In this document: positions 48,580 through 54,743 of the stretch, piece by piece
How positions within the stretch are numbered: position 1 is the first letter of the stretch
Layout of the letters: every line of letters begins with the position of its first letter
From: an uncultured Candidatus Binatia bacterium
GTDB taxonomy: Bacteria; Desulfobacterota; Binatia; UBA9968; JAJDTQ01
DNA length: 64,000 nucleotides
NCBI GenBank assembly: GCA_965215605.1
Contig: OZ244070.1
Coordinates: 3,776,001-3,840,000 of the forward strand
Direction: 5' to 3'
The notes under the pieces: generated by a model
What the model was told of the DNA's origin: nothing
Databases searched by the model: none
Seen by the model: the letters and a program-made list of their open reading frames with translations, nothing else
Program-made: the position numbers and the translations under genes

Positions 48580-48666
48580 AACCGGACGATTTCCATCCGG
48601 GACCGAAGGTGGTAGTTTTGCCGTGTCGAAAGCATGTGCACGAAAACACCGTCAAGGGAGAAGAAC

Positions 48667-49689
48667 ATGGGGAAAATCGACTCGGCATTCAAGGTCATCG
48701 ACGCTGACGCCCACGCACGGGACAACGACGAGTTCGTCAAGCCGTTCCTCGGCGAGGCCTTTCAGAACCGCCGGCCGCCGTTCATTCCGAGAGAGACCTA
48801 CGACCGCAACCTCGGCGGCACCTTGGGGCACGCGGGCATCAAGCACGAGGAACGGCTCTCCGCCATGGACACCCAGGAGATCCATACCGCGGTCATGTAC
48901 CCCACCAGCGGGCTGGGCATCGGCCGCATCCGCGAACCCGGCTACCAGACCCAGTTGTGCCGCGCCTACAACGAGTTCATCGCCGACTACTGCAAGGCTT
49001 CGCCGCGACTCAAGGCCGTGGCGAACCTGCCGGTCAACGCTCCGGAGGCGGCGGCCGGGGAGTTGCGCTACGCGGTCACCGAGCTGGGACTGGTGGGAGG
49101 CATGCTGGCGGCCCAGGGGCATGGAAAGAACTTCGGCTCACCGGAGTATTTTCCGCTCTACGAGGAAGCGCAGAAGATCGGGACGCCGCTGGCGATCCAC
49201 GCCTTCGGCGGCGACGAGCCCGGCAGCGAGATCTTCGACCAGTTCATCGCCATCCACACCACCGGCCACCCGTTTCCGGTATTGCGCCAGCTCACGGGCA
49301 TGGTCTTCGCCGGCGTTCCGGAGCTGTTTCCCGACCTGAAGCTCGGCTTTCTCGAGATCGGCTGCGGCTGGATCCCCTACTGGTCGGACCGGATGGACGA
49401 GGAGTGGGAAAAACGCGGCGCCGTGGAAGCCCCCGAGTGCAAGCAGGAGCCCAGCCACTACATCACCAGCAAGAACGTGTACTACGGCTGCGAGCCTGAC
49501 GAGAAGACCATCGGCTACGTGGTGGGGGAGATCGGCTCCGAGACCATCATGTATGCGTCGGACTATCCTCATTGGGACATGAGCTGGCCGGAATCGGGCT
49601 CGTTGATCTGGTCGCGGGACGACCTCTCGCGGGAGGCCAAGCAGAACATCCTGGGAGACAACGCCCGGCGCTTCTACGGACTCGACTGA
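48667..49689 (+). CDS. Amidohydrolase family 2 protein
   Basis: IDADAH, AYNEF, LAIH, FLEIGCGW, ASDYPHWD, and ILGDNARRFY. Confidence 0.9.
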   Translation: MGKIDSAFKVIDADAHARDNDEFVKPFLGEAFQNRRPPFIPRETYDRNLGGTLGHAGIKHEERLSAMDTQEIHTAVMYPTSGLGIGRIREPGYQTQLCRAYNEFIADYCKASPRLKAVANLPVNAPEAAAGELRYAVTELGLVGGMLAAQGHGKNFGSPEYFPLYEEAQKIGTPLAIHAFGGDEPGSEIFDQFIAIHTTGHPFPVLRQLTGMVFAGVPELFPDLKLGFLEIGCGWIPYWSDRMDEEWEKRGAVEAPECKQEPSHYITSKNVYYGCEPDEKTIGYVVGEIGSETIMYASDYPHWDMSWPESGSLIWSRDDLSREAKQNILGDNARRFYGLD

Positions 49690-49854
49690 GGGTCCGCCCC
49701 CAGGCGCCGGAGCGTCGCACCGGTTGCCATCCGTCCGGCTTTCAAGTAACTAGTTTGACTTCGTTGGAGGAAGCCCGCCCGTTCCCGCCGGTGCCGCATG
49801 CGGCACCGGGAAGCGGTGGCCTTCAACGAAAATACACGTGTTTCAGGAGTTTCG

Positions 49855-50604
49855 ATGCCTCTTTCCGGCGATGCTTTTGTACAGGAGATTCACGACACGG
49901 TTCGCGCCAAGCACTCCAAGGACAACCCTCTGATCGGGATGATCGAAAGGGGCGAGATCGACCGGGAGGCGCTCAAGGGATTCGTGGGGCAGTTCTATCT
50001 TTTCTTCCCCAAGCCCTTTCCCAAGCCCATCGCGGCCATGCTGGGACGCTGTCCCGAGGACGCCGAGCTGGAGCGGATGTGGATCGAGAACGTGGTGGAG
50101 GAGGGTACCGGGGAGATCTCCGGCACCGACAGCCACCGCGGCCTCTTCATCCGTTTCGCCATGAGCTGCGGCTACGCTTCCAAGGAGGAGTTGGACGCGG
50201 TACAGGCCCTGCCCGAGACCTCGGCGTTCCTCGACTGGCGCGATCTGCTCATGTACCAACGCTCGTGGCTGGAGCTCTACGCCTGCCAGGGGTTCTGCCT
50301 TGAAGGCACCGCCAGCGAGCGCATGAGCCGCATCGTCACCGGACTGACCACGCACTACGGCTTCGACCGGGAAAGCGACGACATCCGCTACTGGACGCTG
50401 CACATGGGCGTGGACGAAGAGCACATGAAGGTGGGCCCGTTGGCCGTGAGCAGATACGCGGTCACCGACCAGCAGCAGGACCAGGTGCGCCAGTCGGTGC
50501 AGAAGACCCTGGACCAGTTCTGGCTGGCTTTCGACGGCATCAAGAGAGCCTTCGTCGACAAGGACCCCATCTACGCCGGTTGGCGCAACGGGGGCGCGGC
50601 CTGA
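49855..50604 (+). CDS. Heme-oxygenase-like diiron oxidase (TenA/PqqC/CADD superfamily)
   Basis: ENVVEEGTG...SH, CLEG, and WTLHMGVDEEH give the E/H...E...HxxxDxxH diiron ligand pattern. Confidence 0.75.
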   Translation: MPLSGDAFVQEIHDTVRAKHSKDNPLIGMIERGEIDREALKGFVGQFYLFFPKPFPKPIAAMLGRCPEDAELERMWIENVVEEGTGEISGTDSHRGLFIRFAMSCGYASKEELDAVQALPETSAFLDWRDLLMYQRSWLELYACQGFCLEGTASERMSRIVTGLTTHYGFDRESDDIRYWTLHMGVDEEHMKVGPLAVSRYAVTDQQQDQVRQSVQKTLDQFWLAFDGIKRAFVDKDPIYAGWRNGGAA

Positions 50605-50642
50605 GCCGGCGGCAGGCGCCCAACCCCTCAGGAAACACGACC

Positions 50643-51293
50643 ATGTCCATGATCGATCTCTCGCGGATAATCTATGACGGCATGCCCAAGATCCCGGCGC
50701 TGCCTGACGTGCACGTGCAGCGATTTTTCGATCTCGGCAAGGGCCACCCGCTCAACGTCACCGAGATCAACCTGCCGTGTCATGCCGGGACCCACGTGGA
50801 CGCGCCGGTCCACATCATGCCCGACGGCAAGTCCATCGAGGAGCTGTCGCTCGACGCCTTCGTCGGTCCGGGCGCGGTGATCTCCGTGGAGAAGGGCGGG
50901 GGAGAGGAAGTCACCGCGGCGGATCTCCAGGGCTCGGGGGTTGTGGTGGAGCGGGGCGACGTGCTGATGCTGCATACCGGATGGGACGAGAAGTTCGAAA
51001 GCGAAGAATACAATATGCACCCCTATCTCTCCGTCGACGCGGCGGAATGGATCGTGGAGCGCGGAGTGAAGCTGTTCGGGATCGACTGCATCACGGTGGA
51101 CCTGCCCACGCCGTTGCGGCCCAAGGGGTTCGACTTCCCGGTACACCGGACTCTCCTGGGCAACGACGTGCTGATCGCCGAGAACGTAACCAATCTCGCC
51201 GCCATTGCTGGACGCAAAAGCCGCATCATGGCGCTACCCCTCAAGGTGCAGGGGAGCGACGCGGCCCACGCCAGAATCGTCGCCGAGGTCTGA
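50643..51293 (+). CDS. Cyclase family / kynurenine formamidase-like protein
   Basis: HAGTHVDAPVH, LHTGW, GID, PVHRTLL, and ENVTNL. Confidence 0.9.
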   Translation: MSMIDLSRIIYDGMPKIPALPDVHVQRFFDLGKGHPLNVTEINLPCHAGTHVDAPVHIMPDGKSIEELSLDAFVGPGAVISVEKGGGEEVTAADLQGSGVVVERGDVLMLHTGWDEKFESEEYNMHPYLSVDAAEWIVERGVKLFGIDCITVDLPTPLRPKGFDFPVHRTLLGNDVLIAENVTNLAAIAGRKSRIMALPLKVQGSDAAHARIVAEV

Positions 51294-51306
51294 GCGAGGT
51301 CAAGGC

Positions 51307-52272
51307 ATGCTGGCAAGCCCCATCAGAGGAATTATCGGAGCTGCGCTGACCCCGTTCACGGACGACGGGAAGGTGGACTATGACGCCTTGGCGCGACAGA
51401 TCGAATTTCTCGTAGCCGACTGCGACGCCATCTCCGTGGCCGCGGTCGAAGCCTCGGAGTACACGGTCCTCTCCCTCCAGGACCGGAAAGAGGTCATGCG
51501 GCGCGCCACCGAGATCGTCAACAAGCGCGTGCCGGTCATTCTCGGGGCGTCGAGCCATTCCATCGACACGATCCTCGACCTCGCGGATCATGCCGCCGCC
51601 GTGGGCGGCGACCTCATCCAGGTGCTGATGCCCATCCGTCCGTGGGGCGGGCAGCCCACCATCGCGGATCTGGTACAGTTCTTCACCGAGGTGGCGTCGG
51701 TGAGCCCGTTGCCCATCGTCGCCTATCACAACCCCGGTCCCGGCGCCGACCCACCGCTGGACGCCTTCGTACGGCTCAGCGAGATCGAAAAAGTCGACTA
51801 CTTCAAGGAGAGCTCGCGTGACATCACCAAGATCACGCGCCTCATCGAGCAGATTCAACTGGCCGGCAAGGCCAACTACTTCACCACCATGCAGCCGTTG
51901 CTGACGACGCTCATGATGGGAGGCGCGGGCGCCACCATGCCGCCGCCGGGCACGCGCATCGGCGCCAGGGTGGTCCGCGCGTTCCGGGACGGCGACACCG
52001 ACAAGGCGCGCTACTGGCAGCGCTGCTTTACGCTCTTCCCGGGGAAGTGGGGCGCCTACGGACTGCCGCCGATCATGAAATCCGCCCTGAAGCACTTCGG
52101 GGTCGACATCGGCGACCCAGCCCGGCCCTATTCGCCCGTGAGTCCCCGGGACCACGCCCAGATCGGGCAGTTCCTGGGCCAGATCGGCATCCTGGGCGAT
52201 GGCGAGCCCGACGAAGCCACGTTCGACGAGGCCGCCATCCAGCTTGCCCAGGAAGACACCTTCCTTCGCTAG
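51307..52272 (+). CDS. Dihydrodipicolinate synthase/N-acetylneuraminate lyase family protein
   Basis: LTPFTDDGKVD, LPIVAYHNP, and the Schiff-base Lys in FKESS. Confidence 0.85.
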   Translation: MLASPIRGIIGAALTPFTDDGKVDYDALARQIEFLVADCDAISVAAVEASEYTVLSLQDRKEVMRRATEIVNKRVPVILGASSHSIDTILDLADHAAAVGGDLIQVLMPIRPWGGQPTIADLVQFFTEVASVSPLPIVAYHNPGPGADPPLDAFVRLSEIEKVDYFKESSRDITKITRLIEQIQLAGKANYFTTMQPLLTTLMMGGAGATMPPPGTRIGARVVRAFRDGDTDKARYWQRCFTLFPGKWGAYGLPPIMKSALKHFGVDIGDPARPYSPVSPRDHAQIGQFLGQIGILGDGEPDEATFDEAAIQLAQEDTFLR

Positions 52273-52300: not shown

Positions 52301-52510
52301 ATGTCCGGCGGCCTCTTCACCTGGATTACGGAACAGATCAAGACTTGGTCCGACTTTCTGGTGTTGCGCCTCATCCGCGGCACTTCGCGGTTCGAGTCGG
52401 AACTGACCGAGGAAGGCCGCCAGGAACAGCGCATGTGGCGGGACCGGCGCATGCGCAACCTGAAGGGCCTCGCGATTCGAGCCAGGCGGCGGCAGCAACA
52501 GAACTCCTGA
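52301..52510 (+). CDS. Small hypothetical protein
   Basis: 69-aa ATG-started ORF fills the gap, co-oriented with GC3-rich codons, and ends 10 nt before the SQR-like gene. Confidence 0.5.
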   Translation: MSGGLFTWITEQIKTWSDFLVLRLIRGTSRFESELTEEGRQEQRMWRDRRMRNLKGLAIRARRRQQQNS

Positions 52511-52520
52511 CGGTCACGAA

Positions 52521-53678
52521 ATGCACTACCACAACGAACGCAAGCAGATTGTGGTGCTGGGCGGCGGCAGCGGCGGAGTCGTGGCCGCCACCAAGCTCGG
52601 CCGCGCCCTCGGAGCGGATCACGACGTGACCCTCATCGACCGCCGGGCCGATCACGTCTACATGCCCGCGTTCCTGTTCGTGATGGTCGGACAGCGGCGG
52701 CCCGAGGACATCACGCGAAAGCTCAAGCGCCTGGAGAAGCGCAACATCCGGGTGCTTCAGGCGGAGATCCTCGGCATCGACGCCGGCCGCCAGCAGGTCA
52801 TCCTCGAAAGCACCGCCATCCCGTACGATTACCTGATCGTTTCCCTGGGCCTCGAGGTCAGGCCCGACCTGCTGCCCGGCTTCGCCGAGGGGGCGCAACA
52901 TTCATGGGAGATGGACGCGGCCGTGCGTCTCAGGACCACCCTCGACAGTTTCCGCGAGGGGCGCGTGCTGGTGGGCATCCCGCAGGGACCGTACCGTTGC
53001 CCGCCGGCTCCCTATGAGGCCCAGTGGATGCTGGACAGCTACTTCAAGGGACGGACCATCCGCGACTTGGTGGACCTCCAGTACTTCACCCGGGAACCCG
53101 AGCCGGCGGGCGACGAGTACATGCCTTCGGTGTGGATGGACGCACAAAGCAAGAAGCGCAATGTCACCATCCACTACGACTTCGTCGTGCAGTCCATCGA
53201 TGCGGAAAAGAGACGCGTCAAGGGCCTCTACGGCTACGAGTTGTCCTACGACCTGCTGATGATGGTACCGCCACACCGGCCCTCTCAAGTGCTCTACGAC
53301 TGCGGCCTGGCAGAGAAAGAGAACGGCATACGGGTGGACTACGACACCCTGGAGACCAAGTGGGAGAATGTCTACGCCATCGGCGACTGCGCCGACATGC
53401 CCGCCTCCAAGGCCGGCGGCGTGGCGCACCAGGAAGCCGACGTGGTGGCGGACAACCTGGCGGCGGAGATCACGGGGGAAGGGGAGCTATCCACCCTTCA
53501 CCTGCACACCATATGACTGCTTTCTTGCGGCGCGGGACGCGCCGCCGCCAACCGCACCACGTACCCCCAGGGATGGCCGCCTTTCGGCGCCACCGACTCA
53601 CGCTCCTGGGGGCCGTCCCAGATGATCTACTGGAGCAAGGTCCTGTTCGAGAAATGGTGGCTCTGGCGTTACTTTTAG
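52521..53678 (+). CDS. Sulfide:quinone oxidoreductase (type III)/FCSD-like flavoprotein, probable selenoprotein (in-frame TGA at 53514-53516)
   Basis: Motifs IVVLGGGSGG, YRCPPAPYE, VYAIGD and KAG. After the TGA the same frame continues LLSCGAGRA...PSQMIYWSKVLFEKWWLWRYF* (TAG 53676-53678), the typical SQR C-terminal helix. Confidence 0.8.
53527..53545 (+). promoter_or_regulatory. Putative bacterial SECIS element
   Basis: GCGGCGCG-GGA-CGCGCCGC perfect 8-bp stem starts 10 nt after the UGA, with G at the first loop position 18 nt downstream. Confidence 0.7.
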
Positions 53679-53705: not shown

Positions 53706-54743
53706 ATGATCCTCCGCGAGCTCAACGGCGGAAGCTGCAAGACCTACCTGATAGCCGACGAGGGCAGGGGACACGCGGTGCTGGTGGACCCGCTCTACGC
53801 CCACGTGGAGCGGTATATTGCCGTACTCGCCTACCATCGCCTCAAGCTGGACATGGTCATTGACACCCACACCCACGCCGACCATCTAAGCGCGTGCCCC
53901 CAACTTCGATTCCTTCTGGGTCCGCCGTTCGCGATGCAGAAGTGGGCGCCCAGCCCGGCCGTGGACAAGCATCTGGAAGAGGGCGAGGAAATCCCCGTCG
54001 GCGATCTTGTCGTGCGGGTTCTCCATACTCCCGGACACACGCCCGACGGCATGAGCCTGCTGGTGGAAGGGAACGTCCTGACCGGCGACACCTTGTTCAT
54101 CGGCGGCTCGGGACGCACCGACTTCGCCGGCGGCGACGCCGGCGCACAGTACGATGCCGTCACGGGAAAGCTCTTCACGCTCCCGGACGATACCGTCGTC
54201 CGTCCCGGCCACGACTACCGCGGCAACACCGCCTCCACCATCGGCCGCGAAAAAGAAACCAATCCGCGGCTCGCCAACCGCAGCCGTCAGGACTACATCG
54301 ACCTCATGAACAACCTCCAGCTCTCTCCGCCCCAGAACATCCAGGAGGTCCTCCAACCCAATCAGTCCGCCATCAGCAACGAGGAGATCAGTTTTCCCGA
54401 CTGGAGCGAGCTCAAGAAGGTCCGGGAAATCGACGTCCAGGCGCTTCGGCGAATGCTCGATTCCGACGCCCGGCCGCTACTGGTGGACGTTCGCGAACCC
54501 GGCGAGTACTCGGGCGAGCTCGGCCACCTGGCGGGAAGCGTACTGATTCCCCTCCGGGAGCTCATGAACCGCGTAACCGAAATCGCCGAGCACAAGAAAA
54601 CTCCGGTGGTCACCATCTGCCGCGCCGGGATGCGCAGCGCCACCGCCGCGGCGATCCTCGGCAGGTCCGGCTTCAACGACGTCTCCAATCTCGCCGGCGG
54701 CCTGCTGGCGTGGAACGAGGCGCGCCTGCCGGTGGAACGTTAG
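53706..54743 (+). CDS. Persulfide dioxygenase (ETHE1-like MBL-fold) fused to a C-terminal rhodanese domain
   Basis: DTHTHADH, HTPGHT, TGDTLFIGGSGRTDF, and PGHDY; rhodanese part has VDVREPGEY, CRAGMRS and LAGGLLAW. Confidence 0.9.
   Translation: MILRELNGGSCKTYLIADEGRGHAVLVDPLYAHVERYIAVLAYHRLKLDMVIDTHTHADHLSACPQLRFLLGPPFAMQKWAPSPAVDKHLEEGEEIPVGDLVVRVLHTPGHTPDGMSLLVEGNVLTGDTLFIGGSGRTDFAGGDAGAQYDAVTGKLFTLPDDTVVRPGHDYRGNTASTIGREKETNPRLANRSRQDYIDLMNNLQLSPPQNIQEVLQPNQSAISNEEISFPDWSELKKVREIDVQALRRMLDSDARPLLVDVREPGEYSGELGHLAGSVLIPLRELMNRVTEIAEHKKTPVVTICRAGMRSATAAAILGRSGFNDVSNLAGGLLAWNEARLPVER

Follow-up and report, generated by a model that had tools for sequence, protein, structure and literature searches.

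A gene in the genome of an uncultured Candidatus Binatia bacterium raises the question of whether an open reading frame (ORF) that appears to end at a UGA codon is instead the larger part of a selenoprotein gene. The gene lies in a stretch of 64,000 nucleotides of contig OZ244070.1 (positions 3,776,001 to 3,840,000 of the forward strand; assembly GCA_965215605.1). This whole stretch is called the window here, and the coordinates of all features without a contig label are positions within it. A first-pass annotation, made from the letters of the window alone, proposed that plus-strand nucleotides 52521..53678 encode a flavoprotein resembling sulfide:quinone oxidoreductase (SQR) in which selenocysteine (Sec) occupies the position of the second catalytic cysteine. 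As described below, these nucleotides very probably specify a 385-residue, membrane-associated flavin adenine dinucleotide (FAD) enzyme of the SQR family in which Sec replaces the C-terminal catalytic Cys. That this is a genuine selenoprotein gene is strongly supported by comparative analysis. The case is carried by the conservation of the UGA codon, the coding nature of the tail that follows it, the constraint on a hairpin within this tail, the presence of the Sec machinery and the homology of the site to a catalytic Cys.

Enzymes of this kind are already known from computation. A prediction published in 2025 placed Sec at the second catalytic Cys, and a curated model exists. The deep-Sep report describes Sec-containing SQR-like oxidoreductases with both TGA and Cys homologues, and a Sec-containing 'type III SQR' with an HxxU motif is curated as NCBIfam model NF049943 (PMC13188914). 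The first-pass annotation knew of no experimentally characterized selenoprotein family of this type. This still holds with respect to experiment, as no experimental characterization of a Sec-containing SQR was found in the literature, but the kind itself had been predicted. The gene studied here belongs to a separate, large branch that scores below the NF049943 cut-off and whose database entries are nearly all truncated. Its members have a selenocysteine insertion sequence (SECIS) of their own and are accompanied by a small gene, a probable dedicated partner. Literature searches turned up no description of this branch, and the deep-Sep supplementary tables might already list some of its members.

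Conservation of the UGA codon and coding nature of the tail

Under translation table 11, the ORF extends from 52521 to 53516 on the plus strand and yields a 331-residue protein that terminates ...HLHTI at a TGA codon (53514-53516). The same frame stays open for another 53 codons (53517..53675), which correspond by homology to a C-terminal domain ending ...IYWSKVLFEKWWLWRYF, and the gene closes ...FEKWWLWRYF-TAG with the stop codon at 53676-53678. This arrangement is exactly as it was first described, and the length of the read-through product was reproduced: 385 residues, with the recoded residue at position 332 and a tail of residues 333-385.

Standard annotation does truncate the enzyme, as had been supposed. 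A search of 5.8 billion proteins returned 1552 matches. Identity to the query is 64% or higher throughout the best 120 clusters, and approximately 115 of these 120 are 329-331 residues long or otherwise end ...LHTI, that is, they are stopped at the TGA. The inspected exceptions among the best 120 clusters are P0007, which has Cys at the site, P0011, which has Asn, P0006, which is frame-shifted, and P0020 and P0096, which carry N-terminal extensions yet still end ...HTI or ...HVI. The branch is well separated from other proteins. Among representatives clustered at 50% identity, scores drop from 427 bits for a truncated member of the clade to 245 bits for the next relatives, which are at most 39% identical.

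Orthologues of the enzyme were sought in six frames in 41 related genomes. They are found, with 66-97% identity, in 36 of these genomes (three families and ten genera of one order), and each match contains exactly one TGA and is covered to residue 385. One of the 36, in genome G033, is divided between two contigs. TGA stands at the same codon in all 35 orthologue genes that were extracted from the related genomes. A scan of species-representative genomes contributed 77 more loci to give a total of 112, with genomes overlapping between the two sets. TGA is present at the site in every one of the 108 loci that reach it, and the remaining four end at a contig edge. Members of the branch, which is one of soil and groundwater bacteria, occur in metagenome-assembled genomes labelled Binatia, 'Deltaproteobacteria' and Acidobacteriota. 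TGA-containing orthologues, which the first-pass annotation had suggested searching for together with a conserved hairpin, are thus numerous. A sequencing error or a recent nonsense mutation, both of which had been raised as possible refutations, is excluded by conservation of the TGA across many independent assemblies.

The 53 codons that follow the TGA evolve like the codons that precede it. Among 81 distinct sequences, the entropies at codon positions 1, 2 and 3 are 0.34, 0.23 and 1.17 bits past the TGA and 0.46, 0.31 and 1.24 bits in the 53 preceding codons. None of the 81 tails contains an in-frame stop, while the other two frames are interrupted in 53 and 45 of them. The coding entropy and the lack of in-frame stops together indicate that the tail belongs to one polypeptide with the residues before the TGA. 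The alternative that the gene is split and the tail made on its own was considered and is ruled out, because in 29 of the 81 distinct sequences the tail offers no in-frame ATG, GTG or TTG at which its translation could start.

The true end of the gene provides a useful comparison. Of 103 loci, 44 close the gene with TGA, 37 with TAG and 22 with TAA. Since TGA ends the same gene in 44 of these loci, it is not reassigned in these organisms. Moreover, the terminal stop varies while the internal TGA is invariant, which indicates that the internal codon is under selection to stay TGA. It is scarcely credible, then, that the internal TGA is a genuine stop that yields a 331-residue protein, with the rest of the frame left untranslated or decaying as in a pseudogene or a truncated paralogue. 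Almost every public gene call, including the approximately 115 truncated clusters among the best 120, and the use of TGA as an ordinary terminator in these genomes agree with such a stop. However, the tail retains its coding signature without in-frame stops in sequences down to 66% identity, the truncated product would be without both the position of the catalytic Cys and the quinone/membrane domain at the C terminus, and a mere terminator would drift among TGA, TAA and TAG as the real one does instead of remaining TGA in 108 of 108 loci.

The downstream hairpin and the selenocysteine machinery

The first-pass annotation also described a perfect hairpin that begins 10 nt past the TGA. This structure, GCGGCGCG-GGA-CGCGCCGC, is present within the coding sequence at 53527..53545 on the plus strand and consists of an 8-bp stem closed by a GGA loop. 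When folded alone it has an energy of -15.3 kcal/mol (z -3.3), and none of 200 shuffled sequences does as well. However, the element that is conserved among relatives differs from the one seen in the window. Across 79 distinct related sequences (alignment A1), RNAalifold independently predicts a 6-bp stem with a 5-nt loop, NGGNC, located 11 nt past the UGA. When the T of the TGA is counted as position 1, positions 15-20 (CGGCGC) of this core stem pair with positions 26-31 (GCGCCG). In the window, 53528-53533 are paired with 53539-53544 around the loop at 53534-53538. The six core pairs have standard pairing in 472 of 474 cells, and the sole changes in them are from G-C to G-U, in 15 cells. In contrast, the outermost pair of the 8-bp stem (14-32) is kept in 28 of the 79 sequences and the innermost pair (21-25) in 37.

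Bacterial SECIS (bSECIS) elements are expected to have a loop of 3-9 nt, a stem of 4-16 bp, a G in the first two loop positions, a distance of 16-37 nt from the UGA to the loop and a minimum free energy of -7.5 kcal/mol or lower (PMC13188914, section 5). The conserved hairpin falls within all of these published limits, as the first-pass annotation had anticipated in proposing a SECIS search. It has a 6-bp stem and a 5-nt loop in which G at position 2 is followed by a second G, the spacing from the UGA to the loop is 17 nt, and the consensus energy calculated by alifold for the 6-bp stem is -11.2 kcal/mol. Like the bSECIS model, it resides in coding sequence directly 3' of the UGA and combines a small apical loop containing GG with an energy below -7.5 kcal/mol. 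It differs from the model in that its stem is all G-C and has only 6 bp; a conserved lower stem or bulge was not observed.

Selection on the RNA can be recognized at synonymous sites. Within the stem, each of the 237 cells at the three fourfold-degenerate third positions (18, 27 and 30) holds C or T, and none holds a purine. At eight nearby fourfold sites outside the stem (12, 21, 24, 33, 36, 42, 45 and 54), purines occupy 318 of 632 cells. Synonymous choice within the stem is therefore restricted to bases that keep the pairs. The Cys-containing orthologue P0007 (68% identity) carries EPGK in place of the GAGR found in Sec forms, a change that would fit relaxation of this peptide once a SECIS is no longer needed.

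All components of the Sec machinery that had been named for checking, selA, selB, selD and tRNA-Sec, are encoded in the organism's own genome (G000). The matches to selA (580 bits), selB (380 bits) and selD (374 bits) all exceed their cut-offs, and the three genes adjoin one another on the minus strand at G000:C1:1984272-1988572, outside the window. The selD gene itself holds one in-frame TGA, as in a Sec-containing SelD. The tRNA-Sec gene (73 bits) is located at C1:259405-259495 and has the anticodon TCA according to ARAGORN. Among the 41 related genomes, selA is found over its cut-off in 39, including all 36 that carry the full TGA-containing gene. It was not found in G026, which is 100% complete and is also without an orthologue of the enzyme.

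Several observations weigh against the assignment of this gene as a Sec-encoding SQR. A fold of the hairpin in its 71-nt context, which is GC-rich, is not exceptional compared to shuffled sequences (z -0.15). Compensatory double changes are found at none of the six hairpin pairs among the 79 sequences. The hairpin also overlaps a strongly conserved peptide, GAGRAA, and protein constraint could explain part of its conservation. With no covariation and with this overlap, the argument for selection on the RNA depends on the synonymous sites described above. A search of Rfam at E <= 10 gave no meaningful match to the hairpin. In addition, selA was not found in G038 (92% complete, 440 contigs) despite a fragment of the gene in this genome, the sole exception to the co-occurrence of gene and selA; an assembly gap is probably responsible. 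Finally, the label 'type III' is the name of the best-matching NCBIfam model and nothing further, since the score of the enzyme lies far under the cut-off of this model (264 versus 525 bits). The G038 fragment, at C329:3501-3915, comprises the small ORF that precedes the enzyme gene (see below) and approximately the first 60 codons of the SQR, at the end of a contig.

These points bear on the possibility that the UGA is read through but not as Sec, either by near-cognate suppression that inserts Trp, Cys, Arg or Gly or through reassignment of TGA. Residue 332 is known from DNA alone, which does not give its chemical identity, and a hairpin without compensatory covariation is what this explanation would allow. 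It is nevertheless very improbable. The code is not reassigned, as shown by the loci in which TGA terminates the gene (44 of 103), and leaky suppression would not yield a stoichiometric enzyme. The complete Sec machinery co-occurs with the gene, the hairpin fits the bSECIS model in its spacing and its GG loop, and residue 332 corresponds to a redox Cys in homologues, which is where Cys and Sec are usually exchanged. Replacement of the catalytic Cys by Sec, as first proposed, is instead the reading favored by the TGA present in 108 of 108 loci, the coding tail, the constrained stem and the Sec machinery.

Catalytic site, enzyme family and origins of selenocysteine

The sequence of the enzyme has the main features of an SQR. 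An FAD-binding GGGSGG at residues 14-19 supplies the GxGxxG required near the N terminus of SQRs. Pfam models Pyr_redox_2 (85 bits) and FCSD_central (34.9 bits) both match above their cut-offs. The top NCBIfam model is NF049943, which scores 264.2 bits against a cut-off of 525 (258 bits in the genome search) and spans residues 8-377, thereby crossing the TGA. Among solved structures in the PDB, the proteins matched by sequence belong to the SQR family, with human SQOR best (E 2.5e-30) and flavoproteins of flavocytochrome c sulfide dehydrogenase (FCSD) and archaeal and bacterial SQRs following. The tail aligns with the C termini of SQRs, to residue 382 with the Acidianus ambivalens protein (3h8i) and to residue 383 with that of Aquifex aeolicus, and it has an aromatic-rich end.

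Both redox positions can be located by alignment. The first, Cys160, sits in CPPAPYE, the motif that had been recognized as CPxAPYE. In an alignment with human SQOR, C160 is matched by Cys161 of the chain and residue 332 by Cys339, which lies in ...YTSCPLVTG.... These human residues are Cys201 and Cys379 of the full-length protein, its two catalytic cysteines. A broader comparison comes from a MAFFT alignment of 153 sequences, in which the 150 best representatives at 50% identity were combined with the query and two of its close relatives. The residue-332 column contains Cys in 119 of these sequences, a count that includes the query row, in which C was written for U. Eight proteins stop exactly one residue short of the column, and the other 26 have different residues, gaps or earlier ends. 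The columns of C160 and C332 are near-invariant in alignment A3. Thus, the UGA at 53514..53516 does lie at the second catalytic Cys, as had been claimed. The closest illustration is the full-length P0007, with 68% identity, which reads HTIC at the site. Another full-length member of the query clade, P0011 (383 residues, 64% identity), has Asn at the site, CPPALYE at the first Cys motif and an altered peptide in the region of the hairpin. These changes may mean that its catalysis is altered or lost.

Solved SQRs with Cys at this position include human SQOR (6oi5 and 8dhk) and the enzymes of A. ambivalens (3h8i), Acidithiobacillus ferrooxidans (3t2y and others) and A. aeolicus (3hyv), and the solved FCSD flavoprotein subunits matched by the enzyme are 1fcd and 5n1t. 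The enzyme has in common with these structures the FAD-binding fold, both redox-Cys positions and a C-terminal domain past the second Cys. It differs from them in having Sec instead of Cys, and its similarity to them is just E 2.5e-30 to 1e-14. In SQRs, the quinone channel is lined by the apolar neighbors of the second Cys, and the C-terminal domain holds the quinone site and amphipathic membrane helices (PMC9666304). The apolar flanks of Sec332, I331 and L333, resemble the quinone-channel residues described there.

These features suggest how the gene could be expressed and how its product could work. At the UGA (53514-53516), the hairpin 11 nt downstream would recruit SelB with Sec-tRNA(Sec), Sec would be inserted at residue 332 and translation would go on for 53 codons. 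By homology, Sec332 and Cys160 would constitute a redox center beside the FAD. Sulfide would be oxidized at this center to sulfane sulfur, with the sulfur taken from HS- held on the Se/S pair in a selenium-sulfur (per)sulfide intermediate, and FAD would relay two electrons to a membrane quinone. The residues past Sec are predicted to form the quinone channel and an amphipathic membrane helix. A product stopped at the UGA would be without the catalytic residue, the channel and the anchor. The small protein encoded upstream is a probable partner of the enzyme and could serve it as a tether or an accessory subunit, and a downstream-encoded metallo-β-lactamase (MBL)-rhodanese protein probably processes sulfane sulfur in this genus. 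We infer the insertion of Sec, the substrates of the enzyme and the role of the small protein from sequence comparisons.

A different function must be weighed for a Sec-containing enzyme of this ancestry. It might not be an SQR but another flavoprotein of the two-dinucleotide-binding family, for example a reductase that handles selenide or persulfide, or a protein resembling NDH-2 or CoA-disulfide reductase. The NCBIfam matches fall below curated cut-offs, the closest proteins outside the clade share no more than 39% identity with the enzyme and the nearest solved structures reach just E 1e-30. The deep-Sep report placed a related selenoprotein under COG1252 (Ndh), and human SQOR is able to use selenide according to the abstract of a bioRxiv preprint (10.1101/2023.04.13.535674). 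Furthermore, the MBL-rhodanese neighbor is found in just 22 of 77 loci. On the other side, the top matches by sequence among solved structures are SQOR, FCSD and SQR rather than NDH-2 or CoA-disulfide reductase, and Pfam FCSD_central matches above its cut-off. Both redox-Cys positions of SQR are kept, the C-terminal region aligns with SQR C termini, and the operon partner in this genus is of a sulfur-transfer/dioxygenase type. On balance, a function outside the SQR family is improbable, though much less remote than the alternatives for the UGA itself.

If the enzyme is indeed a Sec-containing SQR, sulfide detoxification or oxidation in Binatia-like bacteria and some Acidobacteriota would need selenium, and the sulfur and selenium cycles would be linked in soils and groundwater. 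Database entries cut at the UGA are without the catalytic residue and the predicted membrane/quinone domain. The NF049943 model would not rescue these entries, as a score of 264 bits against a cut-off of 525 means that it misses the whole branch.

The relationship of this branch to NF049943 can be examined at the level of individual proteins. In an NCBIfam scan of 85 proteins, five exceed the NF049943 cut-off with 525-627 bits (P0146, P0162, P0164, P0194 and P0203), whereas P0122, P0007 and P0011 of the query clade score 220-248 bits. In alignment A2, the truncated NF049943 member P0164 stops ...FDGHAT right before the U332 column, and full-length members have Cys there. The end of P0164 at this column indicates that the Sec site is identical in the two clades. 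They are alike in belonging to the same superfamily and length class and in sharing the Sec column and an H-x-x-U motif, which is HTIU here and HATU there. Cys forms occur in both, and both are known from computation only. In contrast, the enzyme is approximately 30% identical to NF049943 members and scores below the cut-off. Its C terminus is shorter and closes with WWLWRYF, where NF049943 members have a longer ...MAGK... tail, and its small upstream partner gene is found in none of 80 loci of the other clade.

These 80 metagenome loci (L135-L214), related to P0164, were sampled to represent the NF049943 clade, and 74 of them reach the site. The codon there is TGA in 55, TGC in 11 and TGT in 8. 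The TGA forms (33 distinct 60-mers) carry an invariant 20-nt hairpin, CGAGAAGG-GGUC-CCUUCUCG, that lies 17 nt past the TGA and has an energy of -11.5 kcal/mol when folded alone. The Cys forms have lost this hairpin, and the Sec and Cys forms together are a clean natural control for the SECIS assignment. The SECIS of the NF049943 clade is unlike that of the query clade in its sequence, in the codons that it covers and in its spacing, which is +17 nt compared to +11 nt for the CGGCGC-NGGNC-GCGCCG element.

Whether the two clades acquired Sec separately was addressed with trees. A quick tree of 60 rows separates the query and NF049943 clades by starred branches, but an approximately unbiased (AU) test on the same rows does not reject a joint clade (p 0.62). 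In this test the likelihood of the constrained tree exceeded that of the free one, which means that the free quick search was not optimal and that the 60-row result is uninformative. In a careful tree of 36 rows, a 100/100 split separates the query clade (100/100) from that of NF049943 (100/99), with each of them among Cys forms, and the enzyme is not placed inside the clade of NF049943 members. A single change of the Sec/END label is allowed by 0% of 200 bootstrap trees, and the AU test rejects the joint clade (p 0.0053, delta lnL 52). These trees are to be read with the caveats that the group was named after seeing the tree, that the root is unknown and that 'END' is a proxy for Sec.

A single ancestral Cys-to-Sec switch, which would compete with independent origin and leave the identity of the enzyme untouched, could account for the identical Sec column and the shared HxxU context. 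It also agrees with the AU test on the 60-row quick tree, in which the constrained tree was the likelier one, although that result is weak for the reason given above. The strong split in the 36-row tree with each clade among Cys forms, the lack of bootstrap trees with one label change and the rejection of the joint clade all speak against it, the last of these with a group that was named after seeing a tree. So do two SECIS elements that are unrelated in sequence, in the codons that they cover and in spacing. One ancestral switch is therefore doubtful, and the trees together with the unrelated SECIS elements make two independent Cys-to-Sec switches the likelier history, with reasonable though not high confidence. 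For the fuller picture, in which Sec was recruited at least twice independently to the same SQR position with different SECIS elements and this branch became an essentially Sec-fixed, two-part module with a partner of approximately 60 residues (fused to the enzyme in Acidobacteriota), the evidence tips only slightly in favor.

Two Sec-SQR clades with natural Cys relatives offer a comparison for what selenium adds to flavoenzymes that form persulfides. The protein ends in the alignment hint at still more Cys-to-Sec switches. P0154 (387 residues, ...EGFSL) and P0175 (339 residues, ...KGYGY) terminate one residue before the catalytic-Cys column and fall in other parts of the SQR-family tree. Judging from these ends, they may be additional Sec lineages.

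Neighboring genes

A conserved small ORF precedes the enzyme gene on the plus strand at 52301..52510. It specifies 69 residues from its likely start, the ATG at 52301, and belongs to no known family. A hidden Markov model (HMM) built from 53 homologues (alignment A4), among which eleven residues are invariant, matches 74 of the 77 query-clade loci, and the three misses begin inside the SQR gene and have no upstream DNA. The same HMM finds the small ORF in none of the 80 NF049943-clade loci. In 37 of the 41 related genomes, the small ORF is single-copy and directly beside the SQR gene. It was not found in the four genomes without the SQR (G017, G018, G026 and G040). Some homologues of the small protein have an additional hydrophobic N-terminal segment.

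In eight of the 74 loci, the small ORF and the enzyme are in one open frame with no stop between them. Seven of these eight fused loci are labelled Acidobacteria or Acidobacteriota, and the database protein P0096 is such a fusion of the small protein with the enzyme. Gene fusion and strict co-occurrence suggest that the small protein works with the enzyme, and it probably does so. A 103-residue version of the small protein has no Pfam or NCBIfam match, and no usable match was found in the ESM Atlas. Our guess is that it serves as a membrane-tethering or accessory subunit. It would thereby be a candidate subunit for a class of enzymes that is generally treated as single-subunit.

The next gene on the plus strand (53706..54743) starts 27 nt past the stop codon of the enzyme and encodes the 345-residue MBL-rhodanese protein. 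This is a fusion of an MBL fold, similar to glyoxalase II or persulfide dioxygenase, with a rhodanese domain, as recognized by Pfam Lactamase_B and Rhodanese. None of its NCBIfam matches reaches the cut-off of its model; Blh scores 92 bits and gloB 87 bits. The 22 loci in which tblastn detects this gene are nearly all from close relatives. It lies directly downstream of the enzyme gene on the same strand, with two exceptions: L114 has it at a greater distance downstream, and L127 carries it on the opposite strand. In this genus, the protein is probably an acceptor and processor of sulfane sulfur.

Upstream, a same-strand run of genes (48634-52272, plus strand) encodes an amidohydrolase, a heme-oxygenase-like/TENA protein, a putative cyclase and a protein of the dihydrodipicolinate synthase (DHDPS) family, none of which is clearly connected with the oxidation of sulfide. 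The small ORF follows shortly after the end of the DHDPS-like ORF at 52272. An ATP-binding cassette (ABC) ATPase is also located upstream, and a tetratricopeptide repeat (TPR) protein and a MiaB-like protein are encoded downstream. These remaining genes of the neighborhood look unrelated to the enzyme.

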